A DNA stretch of 64,000 bases from an uncultured virus (IMG/VR IMGVR_UViG_3300003320_000433) (lineage: Duplodnaviria > Heunggongvirae > Uroviricota > Caudoviricetes): IMG/VR virus record IMGVR_UViG_3300003320_000433; one strand, written 5' to 3'. The notes beneath the pieces were generated by a model. It made no database searches. It saw nothing but the letters and a program-made list of their open reading frames with translations, and was not told the DNA's origin. This document shows positions 38,076 through 48,240 of the stretch, one piece after another. Made by a program: the position numbers and the translations under genes. The stretch's first letter is position 1; every line of letters starts with the position of its first letter.

Positions 38076-38117
38076 TAGCGCCTGCAGGCCGGCATGGAGT
38101 ATAGTTACTCCTGTAAG
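38076..38117 (+). promoter_or_regulatory. conserved phage promoter
   Basis: TAGCGC-18-TATAGT-7-GTAAG. Confidence 0.75.
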
Positions 38118-40391: not shown

Positions 40392-40419
40392 GGCCCGCAT
40401 CCCTTCGGGGGTGCGGGCC
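40392..40419 (+). terminator. hairpin terminator with UUCG loop
   Basis: GGCCCGCATCCC-TTCG-GGGGTGCGGGCC. Confidence 0.65.
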
Positions 40420-40450
40420 TGAGGTGGTGAAAGAATCTTCCAAGTGCAGG

Positions 40451-40491
40451 TAGCCAAACACCTGCACATGGAGTATAGTAGTTCTCGTAAG
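40451..40491 (+). promoter_or_regulatory. conserved phage promoter
   Basis: TAGCCA-17-TATAGT-7-GTAAG. Confidence 0.75.
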
Positions 40492-40524
40492 GCCAACCGG
40501 AACGAAGCCCCAAGGAGGCTCCCG

Positions 40525-40858
40525 ATGATGAACTCCGCGAAGACCGCCGAGACCGTCGCCAAGATCGCCCAGTCCGCCGCGCAGACCCTGCTCACCGCTC
40601 AGGCCCGCGTCACNNNNNNNNNNNNNNNNNNNNNNNNNNNNNNNNNNNNNNNNNNNNNNNNNNNNNNNNNNNNNNNNNNNNNNNNNNNNNNNNNNNNNNN
40701 NNNNNNNNNNNNNNNNNNNGTGGCTGGAGGACGCCGAGGAGCAGCTGATCTTCAACTCCGCCCCCGGCTCCACCTCGCAGGTCCAGAACGAGATGGACAA
40801 GGCCGAGCGCAAGGCAATGCAGAACGCCTACAAGGCGCTGAGCCGCTGCAAGGCCTGA
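40525..40858 (+). CDS. hypothetical protein interrupted by an N gap
   Basis: MMNSAKTAE... before the gap and ...WLEDAEEQLIFN...RCKA* after it. Confidence 0.6.
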
Positions 40859-40874
40859 CCAACCGGCCCAACCC

Positions 40875-40907
40875 GGAGCCCCGTTCCCCAAGTGGGAGCG
40901 GGGCTCC
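40875..40907 (+). terminator. hairpin terminator
   Basis: GGAGCCCCGTTCCC...GGGAGCGGGGCTCC. Confidence 0.65.
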
Positions 40908-41148
40908 GCTGCGTTATGGGGTCGGCAAGGCCGCTACGTGGCCGCGTAACGGCTCCGCGCTGCGTGCGAGCCCCGTTGGGCCAGACTGAGGGCGTTCGGC
41001 CCGCTACGGGCCACGTAGGGCTTCCGCCCGGACGTAACGGCGAACCGGTCAGAGCGCCCCGGAGGGGCGAGTCCATGCCGGCTCCGCGCCCGATTCGACC
41101 CGATTCGTTCCGAGGCGCGGTGAATCGCCGTAGACGCCCAGCACTCAT

Positions 41149-41239
41149 GTCTACCTGGTCAAACAAAAGTTCTTGAAGAAAGTTCAAGAATGCCGGCAAG
41201 CCATCTACCAGGACATTCAGCATGTTTGACCAGGTAGAC
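41149..41239. repeat. perfect 17-bp inverted repeat upstream of the ncRNA-A promoter
   Basis: GTCTACCTGGTCAAACA (41149-41165) / TGTTTGACCAGGTAGAC (41223-41239). Confidence 0.8.
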
Positions 41240-41245
41240 GCGGTG

Positions 41246-41286
41246 TTGCCTTTCCTGTGGATATGGAGCATGATAGTTCCTGTAAG
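41246..41286 (+). promoter_or_regulatory. variant promoter driving ncRNA-A
   Basis: TTGCCT-17-CATGAT-7-GTAAG; same hexamers at 45596. Confidence 0.65.
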
Positions 41287-41647
41287 CGAGAGGGCGGCGA
41301 GCGAAGCTCCCGGGACGGCGACTCCAGCCGACGGTCGAGGCTCCACCCGAAGAACGCGAACACCGAGCAAGGCGGCCAGGCGACAGGTCGGTAGCAGCAA
41401 ATGCAGCGTCGGAGACAGGGCACCGACCCTCCACAAGAAAACGGCAGCGAAGGTAGTAGCGCGCAACTCTCCGGGGACGGACGCGCGGCAGGCTAGGGAG
41501 ACACGGAACCAGCCACCGCACGAGAGAACATCCGGAAGGTTGGCAAGGCGTGAGGGCGGAGCGAACGGGCGGAGCGGCTGGTAGGTCCCACCGACGCCCG
41601 AGTAACACAACAAGACGAAACAGCCCCGTCGGGAGACGCTGGCTGTC
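41282..41647 (+). ncRNA. putative structured ncRNA-A (~366 nt, ending at the hammerhead 1 cut)
   Basis: No RBS-led ORF; purine-rich; paralogous to 45632-46077 with compensatory changes. Confidence 0.6.
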
Positions 41648-41676
41648 GGCCGCTGAACGGCGGTCCTGAGGAGTCT
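41613..41676 (+). ncRNA. type II hammerhead ribozyme 1
   Basis: AGAC-GAAA-CAGCC..GGCTG-TC^(41647)-GGCCGCTG..CGGCGGTC-CTGAGGA-GTCT. Confidence 0.92.
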
Positions 41677-41687
41677 CTGGAGGAACG

Positions 41688-41888
41688 ATGTCCATGCGAA
41701 GCCGCAACACCGTGGCCGGTACGACCGACGCGGGGTTGCCCAAGCGGCGCATCAACGGCTCCAACCCGCCCAACAAGCCGGGCACAACGGCCGAGTCCCG
41801 CTCGACCGTGACGGACGGCTCGGTGCTGGAGGGTCCGGGCGATGTGGTCCAGGGTCCGACCAACGGCCCCGACCAGATCAACCGCTGA
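41688..41888 (+). CDS. hypothetical protein (66 aa)
   Basis: GGAGG RBS directly after hammerhead 1; hairpin follows the stop. Confidence 0.6.
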   Translation: MSMRSRNTVAGTTDAGLPKRRINGSNPPNKPGTTAESRSTVTDGSVLEGPGDVVQGPTNGPDQINR

Positions 41889-41959
41889 AGGAAGGCAGCC
41901 GGGGAGTCCAGCGCTCCCCGGCATGCCGGCAACAACTTTAAGAAACTTGCACTGCACAG

Positions 41960-42001
41960 TAGCCATGCCGGCTGCATGTGGAGTATAGTAGTTACTGTAA
42001 G
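41960..42001 (+). promoter_or_regulatory. conserved phage promoter
   Basis: TAGCCA-18-TATAGT-7-GTAAG. Confidence 0.75.
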
Positions 42002-42034
42002 GCCGACCGAACGAGAGTCCCCAAGGAGGACCCC

Positions 42035-42622
42035 ATGGCCCGCAACGAGAACAAGACCCCGAAGAACTACGAGGCGATCGCCGCCAAGGCTCCGACCCAG
42101 CTGCACCAGGACTTCGCCGAGTGGCTGTACCTGCAGACCGGCGTCCGCGTCGACCTGAAGACGGTCCAGCTGGTGACCGTCCTCCGGATGGACTTCCAGG
42201 CCAGCCCCGAGAACCAGGCCAAGCTGGCCGAGCGCAAGGCCAAGGCTGCGGCAGCCAAGAAGGCGTCGGCCGAGCGCAAGAAGGCCAAGCTGGAGAAGAT
42301 GCTGGCCGAGATCAAGGGCGAGACCAAGACCGAGAAGGCCGAGGAGCCTGAGGTCGAGGCTCCGGCCGAGCCGGGTCCGGTCCAGAAGCTGACCGTGGTC
42401 TACACAGGAACCGGCGAGCCCCAGGTCCACAAGTTCGGCTGCGCCGACCTGAAGAAGATGACCAAGGCCAAGGGCTTCTCCAAGGAGACCGCGCAGGTCC
42501 GCAGCCACACCGAGCTGACCCACTTGATCTACTCCGACATGATCGACTCCGGCGAGTCGAGCCTGGAGGACAACTACATGGCCTACGAGGCCAAGCCCTG
42601 CTGCCCCGCGCTGGACAGCTGA
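42035..42622 (+). CDS. KTVQL-family protein, paralog 1
   Basis: PTQLHQDFAEWL..TG..DLKTVQLVTVLRMDFQASPENQA. Confidence 0.8.
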   Translation: MARNENKTPKNYEAIAAKAPTQLHQDFAEWLYLQTGVRVDLKTVQLVTVLRMDFQASPENQAKLAERKAKAAAAKKASAERKKAKLEKMLAEIKGETKTEKAEEPEVEAPAEPGPVQKLTVVYTGTGEPQVHKFGCADLKKMTKAKGFSKETAQVRSHTELTHLIYSDMIDSGESSLEDNYMAYEAKPCCPALDS

Positions 42623-42628
42623 CCAACA

Positions 42629-42702
42629 GGACGAAACGGCCCGGACGCCTCAACCAGAGGCGGACGGGCCGTCTGCGGCTGAGTGGCCGTACTGACGAGT
42701 CC
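42629..42702 (+). ncRNA. type II hammerhead ribozyme 2
   Basis: GGAC-GAAA-CGGCCCG..CGGGCCG-TC^(42673)-TGCGGC..GCCGTA-CTGACGA-GTCC. Confidence 0.93.
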
Positions 42703-42711
42703 CCCAGGAGG

Positions 42712-43035
42712 ATGGTCATGGGTCTGGTTCCGCTGCCGAGCGACGACGAGGTCGTCAAGGCGTGGCGCAATCACGACAAGAACAACTCGCGGACTGCCAA
42801 GTACTTCGGCGTCAACGAGAGCACGATCCGCAAGGTCGTGCAGCGCGCAACTGGCCGGACGCCTCGGCCCTACAAGAGGCTCCCGCTGGGCGGTGCAGCG
42901 CTCTACGGGGCGTTCCTCAAGGAAGGCGGTGACTGCCACTCGGTAGGCCGCCTAGCGCGCTCCTACGGCGTCAAGCCGCAGTCTGTACGTGCGGCGCTCC
43001 GCCGCTATCTCGATCGGGTCGACCCGGTCAACTGA
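42712..43035 (+). CDS. helix-turn-helix DNA-binding protein
   Basis: NSRTAKYFGVNESTIRKVV and VGRLARSYGVKPQSVRAAL (two HTH-like motifs). Confidence 0.7.
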   Translation: MVMGLVPLPSDDEVVKAWRNHDKNNSRTAKYFGVNESTIRKVVQRATGRTPRPYKRLPLGGAALYGAFLKEGGDCHSVGRLARSYGVKPQSVRAALRRYLDRVDPVN

Positions 43036-43055
43036 GTCCCCAAGGAGGACACCCC

Positions 43056-43274
43056 ATGGACAACGACCGCAAGGCTGTGTACGACTACATCATGAACGCG
43101 GACGGCCTCATCAAGATGTCGACGTTCGCGATCTTCGACGGTGTGGTCAACAAGGACTACGTCGTCATCCACAGCGCACCGCCGCGTGTCGTGCGCGAGC
43201 TCGTCGGCTTCTGCAAGATGGTGTCGATGAGCGAGCAGGGCCTGCTGATCCCGCTGACCAAGAAGGAGAGCTAG
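43056..43274 (+). CDS. hypothetical protein
   Basis: GAGTCCCCAAGGAGG leader. Confidence 0.7.
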   Translation: MDNDRKAVYDYIMNADGLIKMSTFAIFDGVVNKDYVVIHSAPPRVVRELVGFCKMVSMSEQGLLIPLTKKES

Positions 43275-43438
43275 TGACACGGGGAACACCGATCCCGCAG
43301 GATCCGAGCGGAGCCCACGAGGCCGCTCCTCCGCCGGAGGCCGACCCGGTCGTCCAGGCGGAGGCACGGGGGCACAGCCCGGCGGATCAGGTCCAGCCGC
43401 CGGACGCGGACGCCATCGACCTCTACGGAGGCATCTGA
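43274..43438 (+). CDS. small hypothetical protein
   Basis: AAGGAG RBS; TAGTG coupling. Confidence 0.5.
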   Translation: MTRGTPIPQDPSGAHEAAPPPEADPVVQAEARGHSPADQVQPPDADAIDLYGGI

Positions 43439-43439
43439 C

Positions 43440-43520
43440 ATGTTCATCCTGGAGATCCTCGCCGAGACGATCGGCGAGTTCATCGGCGCTCTGTTCGGGC
43501 GCAGAAGGAGGCGCAAGTGA
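43440..43520 (+). CDS. 26-aa amphipathic peptide
   Basis: MFILEILAETIGEFIGALFGRRRRRK; GGAGG RBS. Confidence 0.5.
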   Translation: MFILEILAETIGEFIGALFGRRRRRK

Positions 43521-43693
43521 GCGGCGAGACACCGCGTGGCGTGACCGGGCCGGGATACGACGAGCACCAGGCCACGCCGCACAAGGACCACAACCACTCA
43601 GACCACCAGGTTCAGCCGGACAACCAGAACACCGGAACTGCCGGCACGACACATGGCGAGGGTGGACGCCAGCACACGGAGCACGCGCCATGA
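43517..43693 (+). CDS. small His-rich hypothetical protein
   Basis: AAGGAGG RBS; GTGA overlap. Confidence 0.5.
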   Translation: MSGETPRGVTGPGYDEHQATPHKDHNHSDHQVQPDNQNTGTAGTTHGEGGRQHTEHAP

Positions 43694-43833
43694 GTGCGCC
43701 CCAGGTCGTAGAGGTCGACGTCCCCGAGTGGGCCGTCGGCCTCCCTGGCGCACTGGAGCTCTATGCGGCAATCAAGGCTGAGTTCTCGTTCATGAGCGAC
43801 GACTGCATCTGGGAGCTCGTGCGCGACTGGTGA
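43690..43833 (+). CDS. small hypothetical protein
   Basis: ATGA overlap; stops 3 nt before hammerhead 3. Confidence 0.55.
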   Translation: MSAPQVVEVDVPEWAVGLPGALELYAAIKAEFSFMSDDCIWELVRDW

Positions 43834-43836
43834 CAA

Positions 43837-43889
43837 GGACGAAACCTCCGGAAGGAGGTCGGGTGCTGGATGGCACTCCTGATGAGTCC
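43837..43889 (+). ncRNA. type II hammerhead ribozyme 3
   Basis: GGAC-GAAA-CCTCC-GGAA-GGAGG-TC^(43860)-GGGTGC..GCACTC-CTGATGA-GTCC. Confidence 0.95.
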
Positions 43890-43903
43890 CCAAGGAGGAC
43901 ATC

Positions 43904-44137
43904 GTGTCCAGTAGCAGGATCAAGGCAGGGCTGGAGACCCTTGCGCCGTTCCAGGGCACACACATCCGGACCGACGACCGGTCCGAGTTCGTCAGGTTCC
44001 CCAACATGCTCATGGCTGCACAGTTCGTGAAGTACTTCCAGCTTGAGGAAGTCGCCTTCGCCTGTGTAGCGAGCGAGCACGCCGACAGGCGTAGGTTCGA
44101 CGTCCGTGTGGTCGTTGAGCTCGTACGTCGGCGCTGA
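43904..44137 (+). CDS. hypothetical protein
   Basis: CCAAGGAGG RBS fused to hammerhead 3. Confidence 0.65.
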   Translation: MSSSRIKAGLETLAPFQGTHIRTDDRSEFVRFPNMLMAAQFVKYFQLEEVAFACVASEHADRRRFDVRVVVELVRRR

Positions 44138-44156
44138 GGCCCGAAGGAGGCCCAAC

Positions 44157-44552
44157 ATGTACGACCGCAAGCATCGCATCCAGGTGGCGTTCGACGCCGA
44201 GACGGTCGGTGTCCCGCTGGACCCCGAGACGTTCGAGGACCACCTGGAATTCGCAACCGAGTACCAGCTGGCGATGTACCGGCTCGGGTCCAAGTCGAAG
44301 CGCGACGAGACCCGCCCGCACGTCCGCCACGGTCTGGCGTCGCGCTACTCTCTCATGGAGCTCCGCGCGCTGTTTCTGTTCGCCAACGCCGAGCACAAGG
44401 CCGAGATCGCCAAAGGCGGACGACTCAACGAGCTGGAGCGCGGAGAGCTCTGGGTGCAGATCGCCGACGACGGGCTGATCGAGTTCCCCGCCCGTGGCAC
44501 GGCTCCGGTTGCCACGGACAAGTCCATCACGATCAAGTACGACAACAACTAG
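44157..44552 (+). CDS. hypothetical protein
   Basis: AAGGAGG RBS. Confidence 0.7.
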   Translation: MYDRKHRIQVAFDAETVGVPLDPETFEDHLEFATEYQLAMYRLGSKSKRDETRPHVRHGLASRYSLMELRALFLFANAEHKAEIAKGGRLNELERGELWVQIADDGLIEFPARGTAPVATDKSITIKYDNN

Positions 44553-44582
44553 CATCACCAGTCCCCAAGGAGGACAAGCACA

Positions 44583-44930
44583 ATGGCTAAGCGCATCCAG
44601 GTTCGCCCCACGGTCGTCGAGGTGCTGTCGCACAACGTCGGCAAGGTCGTCACGATCAGCGACATCATGTCGCGTCTGCCCAAGGGAGCGCAGCCCGCTT
44701 CCGTCCGCAATGCCGTGCGCTGGCTCATGGACGAGGGCGGCATGTGCATCAGCGTCATCTCTGCCGGCAACAGCTGGCGTCTGGAGTCGCTGGACAACTC
44801 CGGCTTCAGCACCCGCGCCAACCCGGATGCCGGCAAGTCGCTGGTGTTCGAGCTCGTGGGCGAGAAGGAGGACGGCACCCGCGTTGTGCGCGACCCGGAC
44901 GGGAAGCTCTACGACGTAACGCCTCTCTAG
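44583..44930 (+). CDS. putative winged-helix protein
   Basis: GTCCCCAAGGAGG leader; VTISDIMSRL...SVRNAVRWL. Confidence 0.65.
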   Translation: MAKRIQVRPTVVEVLSHNVGKVVTISDIMSRLPKGAQPASVRNAVRWLMDEGGMCISVISAGNSWRLESLDNSGFSTRANPDAGKSLVFELVGEKEDGTRVVRDPDGKLYDVTPL

Positions 44931-45025
44931 CGGCCCTACGCGGCCACGTAACGAACGAACGCGCCCCGGTCAGGCACTCGCCCCGACCGGGGCGTTCCGA
45001 GCCCTTACACGAGCGAAGGACAGGC

Positions 45026-45427
45026 ATGAAGATCAGGAACGTGGCGATGGCCGGGGCAGTGCTGCTCGCGGTCGCTGCATGCGACGCCAATGCACCGGCC
45101 CAGAAGGCGGTCAGCGGCGACCGGGACGACGTCAAGAAGGTGGACGCCGTCAAGGAGAAGAGCCACAAGGAGCTGGCCAGCAGCACGACCTGCACCCGCA
45201 GAGTTGCCGGCAAGTGCAAGGCGACGAAGACGACCAAGACCTGGAAGAAGGTCGTCGACCAGGCCGCCAAGCCCGCGCTGTACTGCGTCGAGCTGGACAA
45301 CGTCAACGGCTCCGCCAAGGACGACGACGTGTGGTACACCACCACCAGCGCTGTCTACTGGAAGGCCGTGGCCAAGCACGAGGGCGATCGCATGAAGTTC
45401 ATGCCGCTCCACGGCGGCTGCTGGTAG
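45026..45427 (+). CDS. predicted lipoprotein
   Basis: MKIRNVAMAGAVLLAVAA-C signal with lipobox. Confidence 0.7.
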   Translation: MKIRNVAMAGAVLLAVAACDANAPAQKAVSGDRDDVKKVDAVKEKSHKELASSTTCTRRVAGKCKATKTTKTWKKVVDQAAKPALYCVELDNVNGSAKDDDVWYTTTSAVYWKAVAKHEGDRMKFMPLHGGCW

Positions 45428-45595
45428 GCCGCAGGCCGGGTGAATCGCCGTTGACGATGTGATTCGCCCGATTCGACCTGATACGCGTCGCACTCATGCC
45501 GGCCTGCGGAAACGTAGAAAGTCGAAAAAAGTTCCAAGAAGTTTGCACATGCCCCTACCTGCGCATTCACCGAGAATGACCAGGTAGGGGCTGAG

Positions 45596-45636
45596 TTGCC
45601 TCCGGCCCAGATCTGGCGCATGATTCTTCCTGTAAG
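45596..45636 (+). promoter_or_regulatory. variant promoter driving ncRNA-B
   Basis: TTGCCT-17-CATGAT-7-GTAAG. Confidence 0.65.
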
Positions 45637-46077
45637 CGAACGAGGGCAGGGAACGAAGCTCCCCAACTGGCCGGTCTGGCCGAGGGTAGAGGTTCCGCCC
45701 GAAGACCGCGAACCCGAGCAGGACAGCCAAGAGAGACGGCTGAGATCGCGCCCCGGAGACGGGCCGCTGACTCTAGACAGGAACCGGACTCCCCAAAACC
45801 GGTAGTTGCGAGCGAAGCGACTGGACTGGCCGAGGACGGGCAGCCGACTCCCACTGCGGGCGTCGGAAGCGCACACATCCGGTTGGTACTGAAAGCTGCT
45901 AGCGAGCGACGGACTCCACCTCTTCAAGCCTGGGTCAAGTGAGACACCCCGCTCGGGGCACCTCTGGCCAGGAAGTCGAAAGGTGGACGGTCTGCCGGCA
46001 ACCGCAACCCTCGAAGCGAGGAGATGCCGGCACGAACAACAAGGACGAAACGAGCCCGCTGGGAAGCGCTGCTCGTA
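45632..46077 (+). ncRNA. putative structured ncRNA-B (~446 nt, ending at the hammerhead 4 cut)
   Basis: No RBS-led ORF; paralogous to 41282-41647. Confidence 0.6.
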
Positions 46078-46106
46078 CGCCGGTGGATGCCGGTGCTGAG
46101 GAGTCC
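46043..46106 (+). ncRNA. type II hammerhead ribozyme 4
   Basis: GGAC-GAAA-CGAGC..GCTCG-TA^(46077)-CGCCGGT..GCCGGTG-CTGAGGA-GTCC. Confidence 0.92.
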
Positions 46107-46119
46107 CCAAGGAGGAACC

Positions 46120-46599
46120 ATGTCCGAGAACACCACCGCCAAGAAGACCTTCGCCGAGCGCGCCGCAGCGGAGCCCACCGAGCTCCACAAGCAGTTCGCG
46201 GCGTGGATCGAGGCGCAGACCGGGATCAAGCCCGACCTCAAGACCGTCCAGCTGGTCACGACCCTGCGGATGGACTTCCAGAAGTCGGACGAGAACCAGG
46301 CCGCGCTGAAGGAGCGCAAGGTCGCCGCCGAGAAGAAGGCGGCGGAGGCGCTGGCCCGGAAGCGGGCCAAGCTGGAGGCGGAGCTCGCCAAGCTCAACGG
46401 GAGCACGGCGAGCGAGGACAAGGCCGACGAGGCGAAGCCCGAGGAGCCCGCTGAGGCCCCGAAGGACGCCTCCGAGCCCACCGCTCAGGCGGAGGGCGAG
46501 AACGCCCCGGAGACGGCCACGGAGGCCGCCGCTGAGGCCAAGACGGACGCGCCCAAGCCGCGTGCCCGCCGCACTCGCCGGACCACCGGCACCAAGTAA
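46120..46599 (+). CDS. KTVQL-family protein, paralog 2
   Basis: PTELHKQFAAWI..TG..DLKTVQLVTTLRMDFQKSDENQA. Confidence 0.8.
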   Translation: MSENTTAKKTFAERAAAEPTELHKQFAAWIEAQTGIKPDLKTVQLVTTLRMDFQKSDENQAALKERKVAAEKKAAEALARKRAKLEAELAKLNGSTASEDKADEAKPEEPAEAPKDASEPTAQAEGENAPETATEAAAEAKTDAPKPRARRTRRTTGTK

Positions 46600-46661
46600 C
46601 ACCCCTGACGCCCCCGGTCGAGTGGCAGCCGCAGAGCACCTCGACCGGGGTGCATGGGTAA

Positions 46662-46725
46662 GGACGAAACCTAGGGCGGCTCGCCGCCCGATGGTCCGGC
46701 GCTGAACGGCGCTGCTGAGGAGTCC
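46662..46725 (+). ncRNA. type II hammerhead ribozyme 5
   Basis: GGAC-GAAA-CC..GGGCGGC/GCCGCCC..GG-TC^(46696)-CGGCGCTG..CGGCGCTG-CTGAGGA-GTCC. Confidence 0.88.
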
Positions 46726-46738
46726 CCAAGGAGGAACC

Positions 46739-47227
46739 ATGCTGGAAGCGTTCGCCCTGTACACCTGGTACGAAGAGGGCGAGGGCCGCGAGTTCGTGGC
46801 GGCGTTCGTGACGAGCCCCACGACCCCCGACCCGCACGGCCGTGCTCACGAGGTGATGCGGCGGATGTCGGCCGACGGAACGCGGGGTGACTGCTTCTCG
46901 GTCGAGAAGCTGGACATCAACATGAGCAACAAGGAGCTCGGCCTCAAGCCGACGATCGACGAGATCGAGACGGACGACTTCCTGGACGCTGTGTACCGCG
47001 AGCTCCTGGAGCATGGCGTCGTACAGCTTCCGCTCTGGATGAACCAGGCCTGGGTCAAGCACGAGATCAAGATGCGGTACAACGACTCCGTGGCACTGAC
47101 CGGGCGTCGGCTGGAGCTCGTGCCCAGGACCGCGCTGACCCGCTCAACGGACGCGGCCGAGTCTGAGGCGTATGATCGGGACGCAGCAGCCGAGGACGCC
47201 GGATTCGTAGAGAGCACCGACGCATGA
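46739..47227 (+). CDS. hypothetical protein
   Basis: CCAAGGAGG RBS fused to hammerhead 5. Confidence 0.75.
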   Translation: MLEAFALYTWYEEGEGREFVAAFVTSPTTPDPHGRAHEVMRRMSADGTRGDCFSVEKLDINMSNKELGLKPTIDEIETDDFLDAVYRELLEHGVVQLPLWMNQAWVKHEIKMRYNDSVALTGRRLELVPRTALTRSTDAAESEAYDRDAAAEDAGFVESTDA

Positions 47228-47319
47228 ACAAGCCTCAGCGCCCCGACCATTCGGGGCTGTGGTTCTGGTTATTAACCATCGCCCTGCTCGCGGCGTACAT
47301 TAAGTCGCAGCGGGGCTGA
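47224..47319 (+). CDS. 31-aa membrane peptide
   Basis: ATGA overlap; GLWFWLLTIALLAAYI. Confidence 0.5.
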   Translation: MNKPQRPDHSGLWFWLLTIALLAAYIKSQRG

Positions 47320-47331
47320 CTCTCCACCCCA

Positions 47332-47405
47332 GGTCGAAACGCTCGTGGCGCGACAGCCGGTCGTGCGCGAGCGTCCGCCGGTATGGTGCCGGTGCTGAAG
47401 AGACC
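47332..47405 (+). ncRNA. type II hammerhead ribozyme 6
   Basis: GGTC-GAAA-CGCTCG..CGAGCG-TC^(47375)-CGCCGGTA..TGCCGGTG-CTGAAGA-GACC. Confidence 0.92.
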
Positions 47406-47421
47406 GTGGAGGTCTGTGCAC

Positions 47422-47706
47422 ATGAAGTTGGACAAGCTGATCGAGGACCTGCTGGCCATCCAGGAGGAACTCCAGGAAGCTGGTGTGGACACGTCTGACA
47501 CGGACGTGCTTGCCGGCATCCAGCCCACGTATCCGCTCACCTCGGTCGTGGTCGGCGTTGTCTCGGGTGAGACGCTGGCTGACGAGTCCGAGAGCGAGCT
47601 CCGAGAGCCGGAGCGCAAGGCCGTCTGGGTCGCCACAGACCAGGTCGGCTCGTGGTCCAACTACAACCCCTACGCCCCGAAGGCGCTCTGGGAGGTGGCC
47701 AGGTGA
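47422..47706 (+). CDS. hypothetical acidic protein
   Basis: GGAGG RBS after hammerhead 6; MKLDKLIEDL...NPYAPKALWE. Confidence 0.75.
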   Translation: MKLDKLIEDLLAIQEELQEAGVDTSDTDVLAGIQPTYPLTSVVVGVVSGETLADESESELREPERKAVWVATDQVGSWSNYNPYAPKALWEVAR

Positions 47707-48020
47707 AACCGGAGATCAGCGTCACCCCGGCTCAGAAGGGGTCGAACTGCTACCTGTGCCACGAGACGGCTGCTGTGTGCTGCCTCCCGCGAGACCTGGA
47801 CGATCCTGACATCACGCCGGAGGCCAACGAGTGGTACGACATGGGCCTGCTCTCGTGCTGGGGCTGCATCCGCAAGATCCTCACCATGCTCATGTCCGAC
47901 CCCAAGCTCCCCGAGCGTGAGGCGGACGCGCTGGAGGAGGATGTGAGAGCGCTCCGACCCGAGCGTCTCGACGAGCTGGAACACAAGATCGACACGGCCA
48001 TCCAGGAACTGGAGAAGTGA
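47703..48020 (+). CDS. hypothetical Cys-motif protein
   Basis: GTGA overlap; CYLC and CWGC. Confidence 0.65.
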   Translation: MKPEISVTPAQKGSNCYLCHETAAVCCLPRDLDDPDITPEANEWYDMGLLSCWGCIRKILTMLMSDPKLPEREADALEEDVRALRPERLDELEHKIDTAIQELEK

Positions 48021-48175
48021 TGGCGAGCTTCACTAAGAACTGGTGGGCTAAGCATGACATGGACCGTGACGGCAAGGGCTGCTTCTTCATCGTCATGGTG
48101 ATAGCAGGAGCGCTCCTGTTCGTCGGCGTCGGACTCGGCATCATCGCCACGGTCGCAGTCGCCAAGCTGTTCTAA
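48020..48175 (+). CDS. small membrane protein
   Basis: TGATG coupling; long hydrophobic C-terminus. Confidence 0.55.
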   Translation: MASFTKNWWAKHDMDRDGKGCFFIVMVIAGALLFVGVGLGIIATVAVAKLF

Positions 48176-48186
48176 TCCTCAGCCTA

Positions 48187-48240
48187 GGACGAAACCTCCG
48201 TGAGGAGGTCCGCCGGTAAGGTACCGGTGCTGACGAGTCC
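48187..48240 (+). ncRNA. type II hammerhead ribozyme 7
   Basis: GGAC-GAAA-CCTCC-GTGA-GGAGG-TC^(48210)-CGCCGGTA..TACCGGTG-CTGACGA-GTCC. Confidence 0.95.

Follow-up and report, generated by a model that had tools for sequence, protein, structure and literature searches.

Two paralogous pseudoknotted RNAs between promoter-like sites and hammerhead motifs in Streptomyces phages

The DNA analyzed here, in the following called the window, is a stretch of 64,000 nucleotides (nt) from an uncultured virus of the Caudoviricetes (IMG/VR record IMGVR_UViG_3300003320_000433). It contains on its + strand two copies of an uncatalogued family of structured non-coding RNAs (ncRNAs) of Streptomyces phages, ncRNA1 (41282-41647) and ncRNA2 (45632-46077), each of which lies between a promoter-like site and a hammerhead motif. 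The promoter-like sites, at 41246-41274 and 45596-45624 (both + strand), consist of a -35 element TTGCCT, a spacer of 17 nt and a -10 element CATGAT. Including the first transcribed letters, the variant promoter TTGCCT-17-CATGAT-7-GTAAG that a preliminary description of this DNA had placed ahead of both RNAs is indeed found at 41246-41286 and 45596-45636. Transcription presumably starts at G41282 of GTAAGCGA and at G45632, respectively. A simple sigma-70 scan did not list the ncRNA1 site, which has 8 of 12 consensus matches by hand count. The same promoter-like layout precedes all of the family copies listed (27/27), and in many relatives the -10 element reads CATAGT instead of CATGAT. At the other end, hammerhead 1 (41612-41677, core 41616-41673, + strand) and hammerhead 4 (46042-46107, core 46046-46103, + strand) have predicted cuts after C41647 and A46077, which would yield RNAs of 366 and 446 nt.

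ncRNA1 begins with a long 5' hairpin, D1 (~41293-41349), which is followed by a small hairpin, P3 (41373-41390), and by a pseudoknot with the stems S1 (41417-41420/41427-41430) and S2 (41422-41425/41442-41445) and an A-rich loop (41431-41441). Next comes a long arm, built from helix W (41460-41464/41548-41552), helix X (41465-41474/41532-41541), the internal loop GGACGGA / AGAGAACAT, and a hairpin (41482-41522) with the invariant loop GAGACACGGAA at 41498-41508. A 3' hairpin with a UAGGUC loop (~41567-41599) leads via an A/C-rich linker into the 5' part of the hammerhead. ncRNA2 likewise has D1 (~45644-45700), P3 (45724-45742), a pseudoknot hairpin (~45777-45803) and a long arm with the GGACGG internal loop and an ACUGC-loop hairpin (~45806-45920). 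In addition, it contains a variable, tetraloop-capped hairpin (~45747-45768), a long 3' hairpin (~45935-45987) and a long-range helix formed by AGACCG (45703-45708) and CGGUCU (45988-45993); a hairpin GCCGGCA...UGCCGGC (45994-46033), a linker and the 5' part of the hammerhead conclude the RNA. All of these elements are on the + strand.

The two stretches are true paralogues and belong to one RNA family. Local alignment of the first ~100 nt of both RNAs gave a score of 78, compared to 22.5 +/- 3.1 with a maximum of 36 for 300 dinucleotide shuffles. The block previously aligned by hand was recounted with the same result (44/54 columns). Among the words that had been listed as common to both RNAs, CGAAGCTCCC, GGTAGT and ACATCCGG are at homologous places, whereas CGGAGAC occurs in both but at non-homologous places; in ncRNA2 it is part of a GAGA-tetraloop hairpin, and the homologous word there is CTAGAC. 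The covariance model R1, with 162 positions, has only cores of the ncRNA1, Yara and L022 types in its seed and no ncRNA2-like sequence. It finds the ncRNA2 core at 45759-45904 with 30.1 bits (E 4.7e-7) and an ncRNA2-like copy in every relative (E 1.9e-9 to 0.011); ncRNA1, which is in the seed of the model, scores 168.2 bits. R1 detected no third copy in the window, the next match having 10.4 bits (E 0.26), and on chance loci it matched only the 15-nt loop with which these loci had been fetched. The 5' alignment far above the shuffles and the R1 match to ncRNA2 together bear out the earlier proposal of a paralogous phage RNA family.

Relatives were found in 9 cultured Streptomyces phages, at 32 further viral or metagenome loci, and in one integrated element (1 of 151 Streptomyces genomes). 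Public viral, metagenome and genome collections were searched by exact patterns. A scan with an ncRNA2 motif gave 8 viral loci. The scan with an invariant 15-mer gave 20 viral loci, 9 of which were judged by inspection to belong to the family and 11 to be chance matches, and of the 22 metagenome loci matched by a longer pattern, 15 were assigned to the family and 7 to chance, again by inspection. Seven genome-contig matches to the longer pattern were rejected as chance matches with long gaps. The family members were grouped into class 1 (ncRNA1-like), class 2 (ncRNA2-like), class 3 (the Yara type, with a different 5' domain) and class 4 (loci L022, L026 and L039, with another promoter type), and the loci L038 and L043 carry hybrids between classes. 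The uncultured phage L026 has only an 82-nt RNA core in common with the cultured Rooney group (Rooney, Gibson). The identity of this core is ~90% in otherwise unrelated phages, which argues for a strong constraint.

The RNA family has a conserved fold including a pseudoknot, and this fold is backed by covariation, which the preliminary description had named as a test among homologues. For class 2, an alignment of 14 distinct sequences with an RNAalifold consensus of 104 pairs was used, in which 97.7% of the cells are paired. Double changes were found at 9 pairs, a number reached by 1 of 500 shuffles, and in 30 cells (0/500), and the covariation score was 0.083 versus <=0.032 for controls with slid partners. 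Many class-2 helices are invariant and thus outside the reach of the covariation test. The cross-class core comprised 13 sequences (classes 1, 3, 4 and hybrids) with a hand-anchored structure of 38 pairs; here double changes affected 18 of the 38 pairs (0/500 shuffles) and 49 cells (0/500), with a covariation score of 0.293 versus <=0.063 for the controls. RNAalifold applied to mixed classes, or to ncRNA1 together with its hammerhead, gave poor or spurious long-range pairs and was replaced by the per-class alignments and the hand-anchored core, and an all-against-all covariation scan of a MAFFT alignment was discarded as too noisy.

Individual elements illustrate this pattern. The long-arm hairpin with its invariant 11-nt loop GAGACACGGAA and a bulged A two pairs below forms in 11 of 11 family variants on differing stems, while 14 chance matches to the 11-mer lie in unrelated folds or at best on short stems. 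Both compensatory changes suggested earlier hold, namely GAGC/GCUC versus GAAC/GUUC in the 5' hairpin and CGGCC/GGUCG versus CAGCC/GGCUG in P3, and with further changes in relatives P3 has at least four pairing variants. In the pseudoknot, AGGG/CCCU of stem 1 is replaced by UGGG/CCCA or GGGG/CCCC, so that one pair is A-U, U-A or G-C, and CCG/CGG of stem 2 is replaced by CCA/UGG. Because both of these overlapping helices covary, the element is an H-type pseudoknot with 1-nt connecting loops and an 11-nt, A-rich third loop. The ncRNA2 hairpin at ~45747-45768 varies in length and is capped by a GAGA, UUCG or GCAA tetraloop, depending on the phage. By eye, no complementarity between loops, between loops and ribosome-binding-site contexts, or between loops and hammerhead stem II was found to be conserved across classes.

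A regular-expression scan identified seven type II hammerhead-like motifs, at 41616, 42632, 43840, 46046, 46665, 47335 and 48190, all on the + strand and none on the - strand. Each motif of this array (41616-48237) runs directly into a ribosome-binding site of the type GAGUCC(C)CAAGGAGGA; the distance between the 3' strand of stem II and the Shine-Dalgarno sequence is only 2-6 nt. Hammerheads 1 and 4 both have the type II core (CUGANGA ... GAAA ... NUH, with open stem II). The former consists of stem II (AGAC/GUCU), CGAAAC, stem III, GUC, stem I and CUGAGGAG, and abuts the Shine-Dalgarno sequence GGAGGA and the ATG at 41688; the latter consists of stem II (GGAC/GUCC), CGAAAC, stem III, GUA, stem I and CUGAGGAG, followed by CCAAGGAGGA and the ATG at 46120. 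For both, Hammerhead_II (RF02276) is the best Rfam family, and the cmscan alignments cover its positions 4-56 and 1-66, respectively. The hammerhead at the related locus L026 scores 46.5 bits. Inspection of relatives by eye revealed stem III sequences that are fully different and nevertheless paired (AGCCCCG...CTGGCT, CCCGACGGG...CCCCGAGGG, CTGCAGG...CTTGCAG), and stem I also varies and stays paired while the core is kept. All copies of classes 1-3 in the hammerhead table have a hammerhead at their end, and its stems covary. The RNAs are probably cut free by a self-cleaving hammerhead. Behind the class-4 RNA of L022 there is no hammerhead, and a stretch with a T-arm-like GGTTCGACTCC motif is present at ~1640-1730 of that locus. 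A tRNA-like fold at this place was considered and rejected, because the stretch gives no cloverleaf and ARAGORN found nothing.

The comparison of R1 with the 151 Streptomyces genomes led to a single match of 49.7 bits, which lies in an integrated element (L065 / L066; genome G127, contig 1, ~574.3-574.7 kb, - strand). By its sequence, the RNA family also heads the operon of this element, which contains a promoter, a mini-core, a cloverleaf, an excisionase-like gene and an integrase. In the mini-core, the pseudoknot and the outer arm helix are retained, and a short hairpin stands in for the remainder of the arm. A cloverleaf resembling a tRNA, with a 5-nt "anticodon" loop and an encoded CCA, lies ~30 nt further downstream. 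It is not recognized as a tRNA by ARAGORN, and its best Rfam match, which is sub-threshold, is mascRNA (RF01684). Behind the cloverleaf follow an excisionase-like gene of the HTH_17 type and a tyrosine integrase, and host genes for a TetR protein and an oxidoreductase adjoin. The 3' end of the long non-coding RNA MALAT1 is made by tRNA-processing enzymes at a tRNA-like element, mascRNA. The layout of the Streptomyces element, a mini-core followed by a tRNA-like cloverleaf that is no tRNA, is similar, but the element is bacterial, its processing is putative, and the device in the window is a hammerhead. Since two unrelated devices, a hammerhead and a tRNA-like fold, are found at the same place, separation of the RNA from the mRNA would be a selected feature, and the cloverleaf in the place of the hammerhead suggests that release of the RNA matters.

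The family had not been recognized in the preliminary description, and the Rfam search proposed there, made against Rfam 15, likewise led to no family for the RNA bodies. At gathering thresholds, the whole window had no match to any Rfam family. At E values up to 10, the region 40800-46300 matched only hammerheads and, spuriously, snoRNA and miRNA families, and no covariance-model match to the ncRNA1 or ncRNA2 body was obtained for GOLLD, ROOL, OLE, HEARO, raiA, tmRNA, RNase P, 6S, riboswitches, T-box and others. ARAGORN found no tRNA or tmRNA gene in the window or in L001, L007, L020, L022, L026 and L065. No description of the RNA was found in the literature on structured RNAs of Streptomyces and actinobacterial phages, with most subscription journals outside the coverage. 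Clustered hammerheads that flank prophage and phage genes have been proposed to divide long transcripts into pieces of gene length (Perreault et al., 2011; PMC3088659). As in that system, type II hammerheads punctuate a phage operon here (seven, 41.6-48.2 kb), and this part of the finding is thus already known. In contrast to it, a unit here has, before its first hammerhead, no gene but a conserved, pseudoknotted RNA of 330-410 nt, which is present in two paralogous copies, and the passages of that work considered here describe no RNA of this kind. Nearest in spirit are GOLLD and ROOL, large ornate RNAs frequently found on phages and prophages (Kretsch et al., 2025; PMC12286853). The likeness, as far as the parts of that study considered here go, is that of a large, phage-linked non-coding RNA with a complex fold and without a known function; the RNAs of the window differ in sequence and context, have no Rfam match, are smaller and co-transcribed with genes, and are ribozyme-ended.

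Taken together, we favor, with moderate confidence, the view that the phage releases a stable RNA that binds a conserved partner. Transcription from the sigma-70-like promoter would place the RNA at the head of an early transcript, of which it would make up the first ~330-410 nt, and the RNA would fold into the 5' hairpin, the small hairpin P3, the H-type pseudoknot with its A-rich third loop, and the long arm with conserved internal and terminal loops. The type II hammerhead directly downstream would then cut the RNA off. The products would be a free RNA ending in a 2',3'-cyclic phosphate and an mRNA whose first nucleotide lies ~40 nt ahead of its start codon. We infer that the free RNA would be stable and act in trans, using the pseudoknot and the invariant loops GAGACACGGAA, GGACGG/AGAGAACAU and UAGGUC to bind, at an early stage of infection, a partner that is most likely a protein of the host or the phage. 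This reading is favored because there are two unrelated release devices and because the loops are invariant across lineages that have only the host genus in common.

Several observations weigh against it. The earlier claim that hammerheads set the 3' ends is backed by complete cores at the predicted places and by covarying stems, but not by the Rfam scores: with a gathering threshold of 37 bits, hammerhead 1 reaches 20.6 bits (41616-41672) and hammerhead 4 reaches 19.9 bits (E 0.036 on 111 nt, 46043-46111). Behind ncRNA2, the hammerhead has a C for the core U in 6 of the 6 cultured relatives examined (L001-L006; e.g. L001 6365-6430), reading CCGAUGAG or CCGAAGAG for CUGANGA together with a GUC cleavage triplet, whereas those of the window and of L008 are canonical (CUGAGGAG with GUA). 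The C variant is possibly an inactive or altered ribozyme, so that the RNA may stay attached in these phages, which would favor a role in cis. The folding energy of both RNAs is no better than that of shuffles (z 0.01 and -0.01). The tested structures were derived from the same sequences and the phages are close relatives; therefore, the shuffle and slide controls are somewhat inflated. In four RNA-library runs from two studies, contigs of related phages with 88-99% likeness cover parts of both RNAs and genes alike, and those at 41279 have promoter-type letters upstream of the presumed start, so these contigs may represent DNA or read-through. Lastly, the RNA is always promoter-proximal and co-transcribed with genes, which also fits a cis-acting leader.

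The main rival reading, which we consider possible but rather unlikely, is that the RNA is such a leader, whose effect is confined to the transcript that carries it or to the RNA polymerase that makes it. One possibility is processive antitermination, as with lambda nut or HK022 put, each early operon having its own copy. Another is a sensor of a ligand or protein that sets hammerhead cleavage, the stability of the mRNA or its translation, and a third is a structured, G-rich shield that keeps Rho off a long untranslated leader. Every copy lies directly behind a promoter and ahead of genes, the two copies per genome amount to one per transcription unit, and the Streptomyces mini-core leads an excisionase-like and integrase pair, genes that are usually under tight control. 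The C-variant hammerheads could leave the RNA attached, and in both RNAs G exceeds C and the T content is very low (6.9% in ncRNA1, 10.9% in ncRNA2). The lambda nutL/nutR and HK022 putL/putR sites are likewise paired antiterminator RNAs, each just downstream of an early promoter; they are hairpin elements of ~20-70 nt that stay with the polymerase. The two paralogous, promoter-proximal RNAs of the window resemble them in placement, which would fit membership among the nut, put or EAR antiterminators, but at 330-410 nt, with a pseudoknot, several domains and several conserved loops, they far exceed the size of such elements. Moreover, they are followed by a self-cleaving motif, and a cut just downstream would sever the RNA from the elongating polymerase. 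A consensus scan of the + strand from 40400 to 46300 found no terminator, no riboswitch family of Rfam 15 matches, and the genes downstream of the RNA vary by class (a small LPKR-motif protein, a phrog_20596 protein, and others), so that no gene-specific control is apparent.

Two further explanations, a role at the DNA level and hidden small genes, are unlikely. A replication origin, regulatory DNA, a recombination hotspot, or a passive spacer left as an inert by-product of promoter placement would be in line with the folding energies, and the inverted repeats, A+T-rich spacers and CTACG-type repeats upstream of both promoters could bind a protein. However, these repeats sit upstream of the RNA and not inside it, and compensatory changes keep many helices paired, including G-U pairs whose counterparts on the opposite strand would be C-A mismatches. 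A variable stem carries different tetraloop caps in different phages, and the core is ~90% identical in an otherwise unrelated phage. This compensatory pairing, the swapped tetraloops and the kept core argue for selection on the fold of the + strand RNA and make an element of DNA very improbable. That annotators overlooked small proteins seems more improbable still. It is true that stop-free runs reach 100-143 codons, but long runs are present on both strands because the low T content makes stop codons rare by chance. Variable columns among relatives show neither codon periodicity nor a third-position excess (35/44/51 and 29/22/24 by phase), indels of 1, 2, 4 and 5 nt are common, and relatives differ in which frame has the longest stop-free run. 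No Shine-Dalgarno-led start occurs inside either RNA, while the real genes of the window phage have strong AAGGAGGA sites. In every cultured relative fetched, both homologous places are unannotated gaps of ~560-840 bp, and the blastn matches to the two RNAs fall under no annotated feature in 9/9 and 8/9 records. Thus the preliminary statement that the regions lack a ribosome-binding-site-led open reading frame is confirmed, and so is their purine richness, with 63.3% in ncRNA1 and 58.0% in ncRNA2 versus 52-55% in + strand coding DNA.

A bolder and quite speculative reading, which we regard as doubtful, is that the family represents a new class of large pseudoknotted phage RNAs that form the first "cistron" of early transcripts, are freed by interchangeable processing modules (a hammerhead or a tRNA-like fold), and act as autonomous effectors. 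Such an RNA might sequester a conserved Streptomyces factor, e.g. a nuclease, RNA polymerase, a ribosome component or a defense sensor; alternatively, it might form higher-order assemblies like ROOL and GOLLD or be catalytic itself, and the two paralogues per genome would then be specialized or hetero-associating forms. There are few large structured RNAs without a known job, and several of those described are carried by phages. The present family is well suited to bench work, because it is found in Streptomyces phages that are in culture and grow easily (Rooney, Gibson, Lizz, Dryad, Wentworth, Yara), with two copies each, because there are natural variants with an exchanged 3'-end device or without the long arm, and because the covariation-backed model includes the pseudoknot. 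It also extends the picture of hammerhead-punctuated phage operons, in that the first unit of a transcript can be a non-coding RNA product and not a gene.

The region of the window is 81-85% identical to the Streptomyces phages Rooney, Gibson, Lizz, ShakeNBake, PHTowN, phiRKBJ001, Dryad and Wentworth, and Yara matches it over a short part only. The underlying search returned 11 matching records, two of which (2/11) represent an unrelated short match in phage Hiyaa. The coordinates place the window in reverse-complement orientation to the maps of the cultured phages, with a circular permutation. Its position ~32 kb (~31.7-32.6 kb) corresponds to the right genome end of the cultured phages, so the window spans joined ends. 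The genes at 42035-42622 and 46120-46599 encode paralogous proteins, both of phrog_20596; the first is located behind a short leader, the second behind ncRNA2, which indicates that the duplication took in the gene together with the leader region. A comparison of the neighboring proteins with Pfam and PHROGs yielded only HTH, DUF2786 and families of unknown function, and no functional clue. A small gene at 45026-45427 (phrog_38663), with a lipoprotein-type signal (MKIRNVAMAGAVLLAVAAC...), stands by itself, with a terminator-like hairpin on one side and the ncRNA2 promoter on the other.

Upstream of the ncRNA1 promoter, at 41149-41239, lies a perfect inverted repeat of 16 bp (GTCTACCTGGTCAAAC ... 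GTTTGACCAGGTAGAC) with an A+T-rich spacer, and a similar one of 10 bp (CCCCTACCTG ... CAGGTAGGGG), also with an A+T-rich spacer, lies upstream of the ncRNA2 promoter at ~45552-45592. They have the half-site ACCAGGTAG in common and are kept in relatives; they are probably operator sites of a regulator that is specific to these two promoters. An Rfam match to mir-2831 at the ncRNA1 repeat was discarded as spurious, having picked up the perfect hairpin of the inverted repeat. Clusters of short CTACG / CGTAACG-type repeats are found at 40915-41045 (L007: 1815-1935), between an upstream terminator-like hairpin (40868-40905) and the promoter region, and also occur in Yara. A second promoter type is present at 38111, 39995, 40451-40479 and 41960-42001, with TAGCCA or GGTAGC, then TATAGT or TAGAGT, then CTGTAAG. 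In L025 and L030, the class-1 RNA is located behind this second type and not behind the TTGCCT type, and both promoter types have the same initial transcribed GTAAG.

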